NCBI RefSeq assembly: GCF_006345805.1
Contig: NW_021826133.1
Location: 1 to 13,295 of the forward strand
Direction: 5' to 3'
From: Octopus sinensis
Taxonomy: Eukaryota
DNA: 13,295 bases
Shown here: positions 2,945 through 13,295 of the stretch, in pieces
How positions within the stretch are numbered: position 1 is the first letter of the stretch
How the letters are laid out: each line of letters opens with the position of its first letter
Made by a program: the position numbers and the translations under genes
Notes under the pieces: model-generated
Databases searched by the model: none
What the model saw: the letters and a program-made list of their open reading frames with translations, nothing else
Told to the model about the DNA's origin: nothing

Positions 2945-3198
2945 ATATAATATAAATATTATATAATTATATGCATATATAGATACATATATGTACATAC
3001 CTACATATATATACACATATATATGCATATATGGGTACAGGACATAAAAAAAACCTGAACACAATAAGAAACGAAAACATAAAAACAAAACCATAGAAAC
3101 GAACTTTTTTCAAACAACGAAAAAAACATTACAAGACACACAACAAAAGGAATATTCCCCTTCTTCAGTTGTCCCTGTTTCATCTACCCCGCGTTTCG
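2945..3198 (-). mobile_element. Dispersed ~250-bp repeat, copy 1 (probably Penelope-like terminal repeat)
   Basis: Reverse complement aligns end to end with 10951-11210, including CGAAACrCGGrGTAGATGAAACAG..CTGAArAArGGGAATATTCCTT and GGTTTTGTTTTTATGTTTTCGTTTCT. Confidence 0.75.
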
Positions 3199-3259
3199 AC
3201 TTCGGTTTTGGATTTGGTTTGCAAGATTCTTTACGTGAGTTCGTGTGTCTAAGCATATT

Positions 3260-3516
3260 TTGTTGTGTCTGGGGAGAGTCTTTCTCTTTTAGTGCCTTAT
3301 TATTTAACACACTCACAGGTAAAGTTTCCACTCATCTACTTATTTATTTTTCCTAAACAGTTCGTTGCGTCTTGCAACATTTTCAATAATTGTTAACGAC
3401 TATTGAATAGGTTGCAAAAACGAATCGAAAACTTTAGGAAAAATAAATAAGTAAATGAGGGGAAACTTTACCGGTGAGTGTGTTAAATAATAAGACACTC
3501 TCCCCAGACACAACAA
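3260..3516. repeat. Spacer-less inverted repeat (foldback) centred on GTTAAC 3392-3397
   Basis: 3260-3394 aligns with the reverse complement of 3395-3516, e.g. TTGTTGTGTCTGGGGAGAGT / ACTCTCCCCAGACACAACAA. The right arm lacks about 14 bp. Confidence 0.92.
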
Positions 3517-3882: not shown

Positions 3883-4783
3883 TAGGCTCACGTGTGAGAC
3901 AAACCACCTGAGAATTGTCCACAACCCGGCAAAATCTACCTTAAAATAGCAAATCTTATCATTTATAATTTAAATAGAGGAAAAGCAGAATGAAAATAAA
4001 AAGCGTAATATATCCAAGATAATGGTTGAAAAACTGCATTAAACATGATAATTCCACAAATGAATATAAGAAAAGAAAAACATTTAAAACTTCACGAACC
4101 AAATTTATAAAATAAATAAATAAATATTATTTATATGATAATAATGAAAGGTATATATGTAAGTAAATCTGAAAATGCGTTTTGGCAGGTGTCAAGATTT
4201 TTTTAAAGTTTTATTTTTTAGAAAATAGAAGAAAAAATTAGCGAATTTAACTGAAATAAATTGTTAATCATTCTAAATGGCTGAAACCATATTAATGGTT
4301 TGTAATTTTTTGAAAAAAAGATTAGAGTTAATCTTTGAATCTAAATACTTGGGTATTAACACACATTTAACTTGTTTAATTACCCCTGTCGGTTATCATT
4401 TCATTGAAAAGGAGAGAAAGAAAAAAAAGCGGTTTTGAATATAATATGCGAATTAATAAACATCTGAGCCTCGAAGATAAAAGTCAGGCTCTATCCCAAA
4501 ATACCTGGCAGATGTTTTTTTTCTTTCTTTATATATTTCCGTTTCGTTTCCATCTTACCTGCATACGCAAACACAAGTGTATATATATCAATGTGTGTGT
4601 GAAAGTATTTGTGTATTAATATTTCATGTATTTGTATATTCACATGTGCATACACAAATATATGTATGAATATATAAATGTATATATAACGTACTGATCC
4701 GTGACAGAAAATTCAACAAAAATATATTCCATCTGGTGAGAGAGGAATATCATTTATTTAAACGTCACAATACATATATTAAA

Positions 4784-4836
4784 GCACTACTAATAGTTTC
4801 ATACTATGAGAGAACTCAAACATCTTATTCAGGTGC
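4784..4836 (-). ncRNA. Degenerate type I hammerhead motif (G8U)
   Basis: Minus strand reads GCAC CTGAATA ...TGAG TTCT CTCA...GAAAC TATTA GTA GTGC. Stem I GCAC/GTGC is perfect and stem III is ACT/AGT. AATAAA follows at 4758-4753. Confidence 0.65.
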
Positions 4837-4899
4837 AAACCACATCTCATAACGAACTATATGCTGCCTTCTCAGTTTTTTCGCGTTTCTTCTATCATT

Positions 4900-5013
4900 C
4901 AGTTTCTTTAGTTCGTTTTGATATGTGGTTTGAAGAATATGTTTGAGTCCTCTCAACAGTTTCTTTAGTTCGTTTTGATATGTGGTTTGAAGAATATGTT
5001 TGAGTCCTCTCAA
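4900..5013. repeat. Exact 57-bp tandem duplication
   Basis: CAGTTTCTTTAG...GTCCTCTCAA at 4900-4956 and 4957-5013 are identical. Confidence 0.95.
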
Positions 5014-5134
5014 CACATGAAACTTTCAGTATCATTTTAATATATGCATTGTGATCTTTAAATAGATAAATAATAGATAGATCGTTGGCCATTACACACA
5101 TTTTTTTCTCTCACTGTTTCTCTCCTTTTTTGTG

Positions 5135-5178
5135 TGTCCATTTCTGTAAAAGAGCGTAGGCTCGAAACGTAAAAGACA
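5135..5178 (+). ncRNA. Degenerate minimal type I hammerhead motif
   Basis: TGTC-CA-TTT CTGTAAA A GAGC GTAG GCTC GAAAC GTA AAAGACA. Stem II is perfect, stem III is a palindromic ACGT stub, stem I is bulged, and the core deviates at positions 6 and 8. Confidence 0.6.
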
Positions 5179-5270
5179 TTTATTATTCCTGAGCGTTTAT
5201 ACTAATACATCTGTTTGTTTTGTACACCACTTGTCTTCGTCTTTTGTGTTTTTCGTTCGTAACTCTCCTC

Positions 5271-5520: not shown

Positions 5521-5556
5521 GTGTGAGGTTTCAAGTATGTCCCTTCGTCAGAAAAG
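5521..5556 (-). ncRNA. Degenerate minimal hammerhead-like motif
   Basis: Minus strand reads CTGACGA AGG GACATA CTT GAAAC CTC. Both core boxes and a 3-bp stem II are present; stems I and III are poor. Confidence 0.4.
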
Positions 5557-6174: not shown

Positions 6175-6617
6175 AGGCACAGAGGTAGCTGTATGGTAAC
6201 TAGCTTGCTTACCAACAACATGGTTTCGGGTTAAATCCCACTGCGTGGCACCTTGAGCAAGTGTTTTCTACTATAGCCTCTGGGCCTACCAAAGACTTTT
6301 GAGTGGATTTGGTAGACGGAAACTGAAAGAAGCCCGTCGTATACATATATATATATATATATATATATATGTGTATTTGTGTGTGTGTGTGTGTGTGTGT
6401 ATGTAAGTGTTTGTGCGTCTGTGTTTGTCCTCCCACATCGCTTGACAACCGATGCTGGTGTGTTTACGTCCCCGTAACCTAGCGGTTTGGCAAAAGAGAC
6501 CGATAGAATAAGTACTAGACTTACAAAGAATAAGTCCTGGGGTCGATTTGCCCGACTAAATAAGGTGCTCCAGCATGGCCACAGTCAAATAAGTAAAATA
6601 AGTAGAAGAGTAAAAGA
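6175..6617 (+). mobile_element. tRNA-derived SINE (family A) with internal (TA)/(TG) microsatellite
   Basis: A-box-like TAGCTGTATGGT 6186-6197, B-box-like GGTTAAATCCC 6229-6239, then GGCACCTTGAGCAAGTG and an A-rich repetitive tail. Resembles an abundant octopus SINE from memory. Confidence 0.8.
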
Positions 6618-7359: not shown

Positions 7360-7767
7360 TACATCCACCTCAGTGCTGAACCGGTACTTATTTGATCGGA
7401 GGGCGGCGAGCTGGCGGAAGCGTTAGTATGTCGGGCGAAATGCGTAGCCGTATTTCGTCTGTCGTTACGTTCTGAGTTCAAATTCCGTCGAGGTCGACTA
7501 TGCCTTTCATCCTTTTGGGGTCGATAAATTAAGTACCATACCAGTTACGCACTGGGATCGATATAATCGACTTAATCCGTTTGTATGTCCTTGTTTGTCC
7601 TCTTTGTGTTTAGCGCCTTTTGGGTAGTAAAGAAATAGGTACTTATTTGATCGTCCTCGAAATGACAGCAAAGTTATCACGCTGGAATGGGAAATCTGGA
7701 CGTAAAGACGGACGAAATGCTGCTAAGCATTTTCTCAGCATGCCAACGATTCAACCAGCTCGCAGCC
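7360..7767 (-). mobile_element. Older antisense family-B SINE split by the 7399-7637 insertion
   Basis: 7638-7767 (GACGGACGAAATGCTGCTAAGCATTT...CCAGCTCGCAGCC) is a diverged reverse complement of about 7402-7537. Its continuation is 7360-7398. Confidence 0.8.
7399..7637 (+). mobile_element. tRNA-derived SINE (family B), full length, with 16-bp TSD
   Basis: A-box-like TGGCGGAAGCG 7412-7422 and B-box-like GAGTTCAAATTCC 7474-7486. TSD GGTACTTATTTGATCG at 7383-7398 and 7638-7653. Confidence 0.88.
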
Positions 7768-7860: not shown

Positions 7861-7965
7861 AAGTTCCTTGTCTTTCCTGATGAGAAGGCGGCATAATGCA
7901 CCCTTTATTCCGTCGGAATTGAGAATATGCAGTCTTCGAAACATATGTCGAGTATAAAGGAATTT
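7861..7965 (+). ncRNA. Type I hammerhead ribozyme, canonical core
   Basis: CTGATGA 7877-7883. Stem II GAAGGCGGCATA (7884-7895) pairs with TATGCAGTCTTC (7926-7937), 11 of 12 pairs including one G-U. GAAA 7938-7941. Minimal stem III lies in the palindrome ACATATGT. GUC triplet 7947-7949. Stem I is TTC/GAG, an internal loop, then AGTTCCTT (7862-7869)/AAGGAATT (7957-7964). Confidence 0.88.
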
Positions 7966-8119: not shown

Positions 8120-8640
8120 CTGGCCAGATTGGATCAATCTCAAGAATAACCAGCCGAAATTGTGAGGATAATCTGGTGCTGATTAAATAAGGCAAGCTTC
8201 GAATGACACGTCCTTGTTGTCTTCGTATCGTCTATCTGTATATTTTGTTGTCCCTTTTTGTGTCACCTAGTTGTCCGCATGCTTTGCGATCTTGTCCCAT
8301 TTTGTATTTTATATATATACACATATATATATAAAATTAGGAAAAAAACACCTTTTATTAATTACCATCTAGAAAATTACATATAATAGGAAAATTAAAA
8401 TTAAAATTACAATAAAATTTAAAGATTAAGTAAATTGCAAAAAATAATAATAAAAAAGTATATAATAGGTAGAAAAATAAGTTTGGATTTTATTCCTTCA
8501 AACAATAATTATATATTTATATATTTATATATATCTATATAACGGCGTACGTACACTCTGTTCTCTCATATATATATATATAATATATATATAGATATAT
8601 ATACTATATATATATATATATATATATCTATATATATAAC

Positions 8641-9186
8641 TTTTCTGTAGAGAAAAAAACTTCATCTTATATTAATAGTAGACTTATTACTACTCGCTAT
8701 AGGGACCGGTAACCACTATAACCTGTAGTGGCGAACAGTCAACACGTTGTATTGAGGCTGACCTAAGAATTTTTATTTCTAGATATAACTGGGGTACTTA
8801 AATGTACTCATGTTTTTTGCTTCGTCTTTTTCCATGAGCGCATGTAAGTATCTTATTTATATTCTCTCGTAAGCTCTACTGAAGAGGAATAAGTCTTTTA
8901 TGAGATTAATTCCGAAATTTATTCAATATAGAGATAACGAATTTTTAGAAATTCTAACGGCCAGCTTGCCCGACTTCAGTTCTTCGATTTTTGCTGTAGC
9001 GAGTATATTATATGTGGAAATTGACGATTTAATAGTCTGTTATCAGCATATTGGCTTTGAAATAATTTTCTTTAGCCCTTACTTATAAGTTGTTTATAAT
9101 TTTAACCGTAAAGGTATTTTAATATGCTGCCACATTTCCTCAGGGAATTTTTTTCTTAGAGAAAAAAACTTCATCCTATATTAGTA

Positions 9187-9189
<3 letters not shown>
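8641..9189 (+). mobile_element. ~510-bp HHR-containing unit with terminal direct repeats between (TA)n tracts (Penelope pLTR- or retrozyme-like)
   Basis: TAGAGAAAAAAACTTCATCyTATATTArTAGTA occurs at 8648-8680 and 9157-9189 (31/33 identical), each preceded by TTTTCT. Internal HHR at 8867-8940. (TA)n on both flanks. Confidence 0.55.
8867..8940 (+). ncRNA. Type I hammerhead ribozyme, canonical core
   Basis: CTGAAGA 8879-8885. Stem II GGAAT/ATTCC plus AGTCTT/GAGATT with a TTAT loop. GAAA 8914-8917. Stem III ATT/AAT with a TATTC loop. AUA triplet 8926-8928. Stem I CTCTA (8874-8878)/TAGAG (8929-8933), an AAG/ATA internal loop, then TCGT/ACGA. Confidence 0.88.
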
Positions 9190-9226
<37 letters not shown>

Positions 9227-9319
9227 TATATATATATTATGATATATATATATCGGCAAGAGTGTTCCTTAGCATTTAAAATTATGCTTTTGCCCAAATT
9301 TGTATTTTGAAAAGACTCA

Positions 9320-9693: not shown

Positions 9694-10380
9694 ATGATGA
9701 TGATGACGATGATGATGATGACGACGATGATGATGACGACGTTGTCGATGAGAAAAATGATGATAATGATGATGATGACGATGATGATGATGATGGTGAT
9801 GATGATGTTGATGATGATGTTGATGATGATGATGATGATGACGACGTTGTCGATGAGAAAAATGATGATAATGATGATGATGACGATGATGATGATGATG
9901 GTGATGATGATGTTGATGATGATGTTGATGATGATGATGGCCGCGACGACGACGATGATAGCGATGACGATGATGCTGATGATATTGATAACGACGATGA
10001 CGACGATGATGAATATGACGTTGATGAGAACGACGATGATAATGATGATGATTATGATGATGATGATGACGGTGACGTTGATGATGATGACGGTGATGAT
10101 GCTGATGCTGATGCTAGTGATGAAGATGATGGTGATGATGATGATGGAGGTGAGTGTGATGATGATGATGATGATGATGGTAATGATGGAGGTGTTGATG
10201 ATTATGGTGATGATAGTAGTAGTGTTGTTGGTAGTGATGATGGTGATGATGGTGATGATGAGGACGTCGATGATGTGGATAATGATGATGATGGTGAAGG
10301 TTGCTGCGGTGTAGTCGGTGGTAGTGGTGGTGCTTGTGGTGAAACTTTGATGATGATATAACCAAGATAACGATGATGAT
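9694..10380. repeat. Degenerate (GAT)n tract with a 105-bp higher-order duplication
   Basis: ACGACGTTGTCGATGAGAAAAATG recurs at 9736 and 9841. Confidence 0.92.
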
Positions 10381-10950: not shown

Positions 10951-11210
10951 CCTTCGAAACACGGAGTAGATGAAACAGAGGCGACTGAAAAAAGGGAATA
11001 TTCCTTGCGTTGTATGTCTTTTACTCTGTTTTTTTCGTTGTTTAAAGAAATGTCCGTTTCCTTGGTTTTGTTTTTATGTTTTCGTTTCTCATTGTGTTCG
11101 ACGTTTTATTTTTTTTAGTGTCCTGTACCTATATATGCATGTATATATATACATATAGATGTAATTACGTACATATATGTATGTATATATGCATATGTTT
11201 TATTTATATT
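10951..11210 (+). mobile_element. Dispersed ~250-bp repeat, copy 2
   Basis: Homologous to the reverse complement of 2945-3198. Begins directly after a (TA)n tract. Confidence 0.75.
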
Positions 11211-12010: not shown

Positions 12011-13143
12011 CAGTGGGGGGAAATAAATATTCGTAAATGTCAAAATTCTTTATTTAATTTCTAATGAACATAAATGGGATATACCAATACTATATTTGCA
12101 TACATATGCATAAACTAAGAATATGCAAAAGAAACTAATACATAATTGTAACTAATGAATTTATATACAATTATAAATATTTAGGGGTGAAAAAAGTATT
12201 CGTATAGAATAAATTTATGATATTCTATGCCACAAAATGCTGTTAAAATATTTTTTTTACTAGAACTTACTCGTTTGTTCCAATAATCTTATCAGTTGTC
12301 ATTTTTAAGTGTCAAAACACTAGCTTCTTCATTCAGCATTGAGACAACATAAAGTAGTATCCAATTAATGGCGAAAAGTAAAGAACACACAAATTCAGTG
12401 AAAAACTTATTTATTGAACACTGGAAAGCAGATAAAAGTCACAGGAAAATATCAGAGACCCTTTGTATTCCATTTTCTATCGTATCTTCATTTATTCAAA
12501 AATATAAAAAATCGGGACAGAATAAGATCTGGTGCACCACGCAAGATTTCCCCTAGATCTTTAAGAAAAAATGAAGCGAAGAATCGAAAATAACGCAATG
12601 ATCACCAGAAAGGAGTCGCAAGAAGATTTGCTAACTTCAGGGACTACTGTTACACTATGAACAATCAGCAAGAACTTCATAGTAATGAACTGAAGTCACG
12701 CTCTCCATGAAAATATCCGCTGTTGACTCAAAAGCATAGAGATGCCCATTTAAAATTTGTTTATGAACATAAAGATAAATCTGATACATTCTGGGAAAAT
12801 ATTCTATGGACAGACGAGTCGAAAATTGAATTGTTCGGACGAAATTCGAATAGCCATGTTTGGAAGAAAGATCGTACCGCCTATTCGCCGAAAAACGCAA
12901 TTCCTACCGTAAAGTTTGGAGGTGGCACCATTATTGGTGTGGGGGTGTTTCTCTGCTAATGGTACTGGCAATTTACATGTGATAGGTTGTAGAATGAATG
13001 CAGAGATGTACCAAAATATTTTGATCAATAATTTATGGGACTCCAGCTTTGTGAAGGGTGGGTTTTACAACAGGGTAACGACCCTAAGCACACGGCGAAG
13101 TCTACCAAAAAATGGATTGTCGTTCACAGTATAAAATTATTAT
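12011..13143 (+). mobile_element. Decayed Tc1-family DNA transposon, left IR/DR end plus most of the transposase
   Basis: TA|CAGTGGGGGGAAATAAATATTCGTA at 12011, a similar inner repeat GGGGTGAAAAAAGTATTCGTA at 12184-12204, and transposase remnants downstream. Right end not in the window. Confidence 0.9.
12368..13143 (+). pseudogene. Tc1-like transposase pseudogene (frameshifts, stops, second catalytic D changed to G)
   Basis: N-terminal HTH (SHRKISETLCIPFSIVSSFIQKYK), GAPRK (GRPR-like), ILWTDESK with the first D at 12813-12815, TVKFGGG/VWGCFS, and QQGNDPKHT with GGT at 13074-13076. Cut by SINE sequence before the SPDLNPIE motif. Confidence 0.93.
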
Positions 13144-13295
13144 TCCGTTTGTATGTCCTTGTTTGTCCCCTCTGTGTTTAGCCCCTTGTGGATAATAAAG
13201 AAATAGGTATTTCGTTTGTTTTCACGTTCTAAGTTCAATTTCCGCGAGGTCGACTTTGCCTTTCATCATTTCGGGATCGATAAATTAAGTACGCA
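13144..13295 (+). mobile_element. Family-B SINE fragments in permuted/tandem order, interrupting the Tc1 transposase
   Basis: 13144-13209 matches 7576-7641 (3' end). 13207-13295 matches 7450-7536 (internal part). Runs off the window end. Confidence 0.85.

Follow-up and report, generated by a model that had tools for sequence, protein, structure and literature searches.

What mobilised the short non-coding element at positions 8641-9189 of a 13,295-nucleotide stretch of Octopus sinensis DNA (contig NW_021826133.1 of assembly GCF_006345805.1; the whole stretch is hereafter called the window), and how did it come to carry the same sequence at both of its ends? A first-pass annotation, made from the letters alone, described a retrozyme-like monomer and took its terminal redundancy for what reverse transcription slightly more than once around a circular RNA, or else a partial-tandem PLE pLTR, would leave. 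We consider it fairly probable that the locus is a solo copy of an animal element of the non-LTR-retrozyme type, one that is non-autonomous and relies on a Penelope-like retrotransposon (PLE). Membership among retrozymes or non-autonomous PLEs is likely, and the proposed kinship is borne out by a multi-copy family in which another copy shows a head-to-tail junction, by (TA)n targets and a conserved whole-unit fold, and by the lack of Helitron, TIR, and tRNA-SINE marks. The account of the ends did not fare as well, as discussed below.

A 509-bp unit with a terminal repeat and a hammerhead motif

The non-coding unit occupies 8681-9189 on the plus strand (509 bp, approximately 32% GC). Immediately upstream, at 8641-8680 on the plus strand, 40 bp repeat the end of the unit, as either a Penelope-type "tail" or a short partial tandem of family sequence; the second copy of this terminal repeat (9151-9189, plus strand) is the unit end itself. 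The 33-bp direct repeat that had been noted at both ends was recovered as an ungapped match between 8648-8680 and 9157-9189 (31 of 33 positions identical, offset 509). Allowing one gap, the match extends to 8641-8680 versus 9151-9189, with 37 of 40 positions identical. The extra G in the 5' repeat copy is a family variant, present at 9156 in all four runs examined, and the redundancy is therefore approximately 40 bp rather than 33. By chance, the longest repeat with two mismatches is expected to have a mean length of 14 and a maximum of 19 (300 shuffles). No second copy of the 509-bp unit is present elsewhere in the window. The (TA)n runs described on both sides are located at 8568-8638, the putative target site, and at 9188-9253. 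A terminal extension or partial tandem of 30-40 bp, as in Penelope-mobilised insertions, is thus present here and is known for the window copy only.

The statement that the element has no credible ORF also held. The longest stop-to-stop frame inside the unit encodes 71 amino acids, and all six frames of the element, when read through, gave nothing in Pfam at E<0.07. A search of the longest frame against 1.84 billion representative proteins returned no PLE protein and only three weak matches (E 6e-6 to 9e-4), which were set aside as unrelated repeat proteins, one of them from a green alga. By frames, Pfam, and protein search alike, the RT and GIY-YIG ORF of an autonomous Penelope-like element is absent from the unit.

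A type I hammerhead motif, as expected of a non-LTR retrozyme, was found by our own descriptor at 8874-8933 on the plus strand, with a cut predicted from the sequence at 8928/8929. All core nucleotides are present. Helix I (8874-8878/8929-8933) has 5 bp and may extend via 8867-8870/8937-8940; it is followed by the core word CUGAAGA (8879-8885), a long helix II (8886-8913), and GAAA (8914-8917), while helix III consists of 3 bp with a 5-nt non-palindromic loop, and the triplet is AUA. The descriptor had no match in 20,000 shuffles of the element, and Rfam scored no hammerhead in either the whole window or the element alone. The claim of one intact canonical hammerhead is consequently upheld for the sequence but not for the predicted activity. 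In the predicted fold, helices I and II form but the core is occupied by loop 3 (pair probabilities 0.95-0.98), and this blocked lowest-energy fold lies 5.7 kcal/mol below the active hammerhead fold in an energy model that leaves out tertiary contacts. A helix III self-dimer is predicted to be unstable (+2.2 kcal/mol). The lone hammerhead is therefore predicted to be weak or misfolded, and inactive. Low activity of monomers is usual for PLE hammerheads (PMC4209133), and the ribozyme of an anole PLE cleaved only when its protein was present (PMC11167929).

A second type I hammerhead motif is located approximately 1 kb upstream of the unit (window 7862-7960, plus strand; core from 7877, motif 7877-7946). 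Its long helix II has a base of 6 bp, helix III consists of 2 bp with a palindromic loop, the triplet is GUC, and helix I has decayed to 3 bp. The motif sits in a piece of approximately 200 bp between TA runs and has no similarity to the 509-bp unit; its occurrence suggests that hammerhead elements are common in the host genome. Hammerhead core-like words at 5551 (minus), 5572 (plus), 3168 (minus), 882 (minus), and 825 (minus) all fail the full descriptor, and those at 5551/5572 and 3168, near (TA)n, may be decayed Penelope ends.

The window also contains other repeats, which look like octopus repeats and which we presume to be such. We take the interspersed repeats at 6180-6590, 7380-7640, and 13140-13295 to be octopus SINE-type sequences, the latter two being alike by eye. 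Related repeats of approximately 150 bp (3046-3199 and 10954-11110) are in opposite orientation, with arms 78-83% complementary, and each adjoins TA-rich runs. A long MITE-like hairpin at 3291-3499 (83-nt arms 88% complementary, 43-nt spacer) gave sub-threshold Rfam microRNA matches. A broken Tc1/mariner-type transposase is located at 12353-13134 (plus), and its first piece matches Pfam HTH_SB at E 1.7e-8, which does not reach the curated cut-off. Spurious long frames arise from two long degenerate arrays, (GAT)n at 9694-10297 (200 units) and (AAG)n at 1283-1619 (113 units).

Related copies and the predicted whole-unit fold

Parts of the stretch are present in 20 of the 24 listed runs (10 studies, four organism labels), with at most 0.46 of its words in any run. 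Contigs from four of these 20 runs (X1, X4, X13, and X14) were aligned to the stretch at 80% likeness; the run types are guesses, two being presumed DNA and two presumed RNA. The two presumed-DNA runs placed 1,543 and 1,417 contigs on the unit, covering 30 of 30 bins, and likeness was below 95% in 984 and 879 of them, respectively. The two presumed-RNA runs gave 70 and 36 contigs in 30 and 29 of the 30 bins, which speaks neither for nor against transcription. The 509-bp unit is a member of a multi-copy family, as is expected of a non-LTR retrozyme. Pattern scans of viral, metagenome, and prokaryote genome contigs gave no matches, as expected for animal DNA.

The terminal repeat (8641-8680) has a summed contig depth of 8,000-17,000. 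Because it occurs at that depth in other copies, it is element sequence and not a target-site or local duplication, and the local duplication named in the first-pass annotation as a possible refutation is ruled out. One X1 contig (depth 109) passes from 9189 into the unit start, indicating that the end-to-start junction is present in another copy; no contig spans the whole unit, arrays of two or more full units were accordingly not seen, and junction contigs could come from copies built like the window copy. Joints at 9107→8651 (X1) and 9137→8653 (X4) may be tandem junctions or the repeat misplaced on its other copy, and they were left uncounted.

Among 24 of the 344 loose ends, departures at 9098 into a TA-rich repeat were found in 18 X4 and four X14 contigs, five X1 contigs appear to stop near 9178, and a 5'-truncated copy is represented by one X13 contig, in which (TA)n gives way to the unit at 8834. 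These 24 of 344 loose ends thus display the (TA)n or AT-rich targets, discrete 3' ends, and variable 5' ends of Penelope-mobilised elements. The search for other copies, permuted or tandem, that had been suggested gave a divided answer: the family is multi-copy and the junction occurs in another copy, but the relatives share a discrete 3' end and do not have only permuted ends.

The summed depth is mostly 170,000-350,000 over 8904-8941 and approximately 9000-9112 versus 1,300-25,000 in most other bins, or approximately ten to a hundred times higher than elsewhere in the unit; these depths are inflated by overlapping contigs and are not copy numbers. The excess suggests that commoner relatives share the 3' half of the ribozyme and the second domain of the fold described below. 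A far more abundant relative has only these two parts in common with the unit and stops at 9098, ahead of (TA)n; this relative may be either the PLE partner or a non-autonomous sister family.

The predicted plus-strand fold has two domains. Domain 1 (8692-9004) is closed by an 11-bp helix (8692-8702/8994-9004) within which lie a long hairpin at 8782-8863 and the hammerhead. Domain 2 (9012-9135) includes the pair 9056/9074 and a hairpin at 9083-9099, where many relatives end before (TA)n. In a tandem or a circle, the unit end (9151-9189) is predicted to form a 7-bp hairpin closed with 8685-8691. Folding of the monomer, which had been proposed as a check, confirmed strong self-pairing, with z = -5.1 in linear and -4.4 in circular form. 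A lower z was obtained for two of 12 other stretches of 509 bp taken from the window, and fold z by itself was therefore dropped as evidence. The unit is thus non-coding, low in GC, highly self-paired, and a few hundred nucleotides long, as are non-LTR retrozymes. The strongest fold tested was that of 4700-5208 (z -8.9), a segment with a perfect 57-bp tandem duplication (4900-5015) and inverted arms (4752-4831/4988-5067).

Only the window copy was used to predict the fold, which was then compared with the differences found in other copies. The 40 best-supported of 144 differences were used; they are unlinked to single copies and the copies are related, so that the figures below are not exact probabilities. 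Twenty-two of the 40 fall on unpaired positions, 14 keep a pair, and four break one, and the pair 9056/9074 is altered on both sides among copies. Random placement gave 15.6 ± 2.5 breaks, with four or fewer in none of 20,000 trials, and shifting all positions together gave 17.7 ± 3.1 breaks, with none of the 508 shifts reaching so few. Outside the ribozyme, two of 33 differences break pairs versus 14.6 ± 2.7 expected. On the minus-strand fold, the same differences break 11 pairs and keep six, so the signal points to a plus-strand RNA, with its G-U pairs, rather than to an inverted repeat in DNA. The difference-free span 8898-8941 was dropped as evidence of conservation, since a gap of that size, wherever it falls, has a P of 0.80. 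The predicted plus-strand fold of the whole unit appears to be spared by the differences among copies, and the unit looks like an RNA under selection.

A proposed insertion pathway and alternative explanations

We propose an insertion pathway based on these features. Source copies elsewhere, arranged head-to-tail, would be transcribed, and an autonomous PLE would supply the RT/GIY-YIG protein that binds the folded 509-nt RNA. The PLE endonuclease would nick a (TA)n run, and reverse transcription would start at a fixed internal site, presumably 9189 in the window copy and approximately 9098 in the commoner relatives; both sites share TA microhomology with the target. Copying of one unit and 40 nt across the junction would leave a unit plus tail. 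The template could be either a linear multimer or a circle. Because the lone hammerhead is predicted to misfold, it would need the help of a second ribozyme or a protein to cut multimeric transcripts down to unit length. The window copy is probably a dead end because a single ribozyme cannot release unit-length RNA.

PLE integration has been described as producing extensions of 30-40 bp, or "tails" (PMC8557442, PMC11167929), and tails of this size, partial tandems, and (TA)n or AT-rich targets are PLE traits (PMC11167929, PMC8557442). Since the 40-bp redundancy fits the published Penelope tail, a circular template is unnecessary, and together with the discrete 3' end of the relatives this makes reverse transcription slightly over once around a circle an unneeded explanation of the repeat. 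We nevertheless weighed an account in which an abundant circular RNA of approximately 510 nt is the template and reverse transcription proceeds 1.08 times round to a random stop, leaving circularly permuted copies. This account agrees with the preferred reading except for how the ends arise. The plus-strand fold is conserved across the unit, the junction closes a hairpin in the circular fold, and such a life cycle has been either demonstrated or put forward for retrozymes of coral, mussel, and axolotl (PMC7229834) and proposed for PLEs as well (PMC4209133). However, the overhang is exactly tail-sized (30-40 bp), and the 3' end at 9098 is discrete and common to the relatives. In vitro work on a single PLE, that of the anole, showed that uncut linear RNA served as the main template and that insertion still took place when the ribozyme was mutated (PMC11167929). 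No back-joint was found in the two presumed-RNA runs among 15 of 17 joints, a weak argument given contigs and a guessed library type. Taken together, we find the circle quite unlikely as the source of the ends.

The abundant relative could also mean that the unit does not multiply as a 509-nt entity but belongs to an abundant autonomous PLE, either as its terminal region (pLTR) or as a by-product that has undergone internal deletion. The high-depth modules (8904-8941 and approximately 9000-9112) are shared with a much commoner relative that ends at 9098, and in the anole PLE the ribozyme and the RT start sites are located at the ORF start (PMC11167929); here, a 62-codon frame begins at 8900, 28 nt ahead of the predicted cut site. 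We think this origin unlikely, as no protein of a PLE resembles the frame among the 1.84 billion representatives, Pfam finds no match in six frames, and variation spares the fold along the whole unit, including the long-range helix. Only one in 100 aligned DNA contigs continues into unlike sequence, which also speaks against this origin, though weakly because the contigs are short.

The idea that the locus is a fragment of a Helitron, MITE, TRIM, or SINE, or arose by target-site or local duplication, and that it resembles a hammerhead by chance, is highly improbable and largely refuted. AT-rich, microsatellite-rich DNA does give many core-like words (seven in the window), and Rfam leaves the motif unscored, but the repeat is family sequence and the full motif never arose in the 20,000 shuffles. 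The exclusion tests used the 5' TC and 3' CTRR ends of Helitrons and other mobile-element motifs. Helitron TC/CTRR ends, another possible refutation named at the outset, were looked for and not found: CTRR is absent from the last 30 nt on either strand. The unit ends are not inverted repeats of the MITE/TIR kind, and the unit contains no A box, B-box-like words only with one mismatch, and no tRNA gene. Its plus strand has six T runs of at least 5.

A bolder extension of the preferred reading, a Penelope-dependent retrozyme-type element, is rather doubtful. The unit would represent an undescribed family of viroid-like circular RNAs of approximately 510 nt in this animal lineage, selected for the whole fold. 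Pairing between loop 3 and the core would keep the hammerhead shut, a Penelope protein or a second unit would release it, and the genomic monomers would carry a Penelope tail. If true, a viroid-like family with such a tail would be a direct mechanistic fingerprint of Penelope enzymes moving retrozymes.

Comparison with known systems

PLEs account for 6.83% of the Octopus vulgaris genome, with 190 families, 31 of them recently active, and the passages searched of this repeat annotation mention neither ribozyme nor retrozyme (PMC13282606). By titles and abstract openings, no report of a cephalopod retrozyme or hammerhead element was found in the literature. Hammerhead-bearing, probably Penelope-dependent mini-elements are already known in many animals, and the kind of element is ordinary; what is new here is that the among-copy differences appear to spare the predicted plus-strand fold of the whole unit. 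The case for mobilisation of animal retrozymes by PLEs has been built on ribozymes that the two share, on their co-occurrence, and on pLTR homology, with the mechanism stated as open (bioRxiv 10.64898/2026.07.22.740005, PMC7229834). A non-coding unit that combines marks of PLE integration (40-bp tail, (TA)n target, discrete 3' ends) with an apparently conserved fold would be a handy test substrate for this link.

The unit resembles metazoan non-LTR retrozymes (PMC7229834; bioRxiv 10.64898/2026.07.22.740005) in being non-coding, low in GC, and self-paired, in having one type I hammerhead, and in occurring as dispersed solo monomers with a head-to-tail junction. Solo monomers have been described for retrozyme families deriving from PLE pLTRs (bioRxiv 10.64898/2026.07.22.740005). 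The first-pass remark that the unit is longer than usual is correct with respect to the circles of 170-400 nt shown in invertebrates (PMC7229834), but 509 bp is within the 51-972 bp range of retrozyme units in bioRxiv 10.64898/2026.07.22.740005. In that classification the window copy fits the "monomer" class and falls outside the definition of active copies, which have two or more units. Its ribozyme is predicted to be blocked by loop 3, whereas that of most metazoan retrozyme circles is predicted to be free (PMC7229834).

Endonuclease-bearing PLEs (Penelope/Poseidon, Neptune) and their pLTRs (PMC4209133, PMC11167929, PMC8557442) share with the unit a type I hammerhead with a short helix III and a 5-bp helix I, a terminal extension of 30-40 bp, AT-rich or (TA)n targets, discrete 3' ends, and 5'-truncated copies. 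The unit differs from them in having neither an RT or GIY-YIG ORF nor a remnant of one, and its helix III of 3 bp with a non-palindromic loop is not of the minimal or palindromic form. The non-autonomous Chlamys PLEs, such as MRC1, likewise travel as non-coding passengers of PLEs, and direct terminal repeats and head-to-tail insertions result from their activity (PMC8557442). In contrast to the octopus unit, they are green-algal, mostly have no hammerheads, and insert at (C)n or (CA)n targets (PMC8557442).
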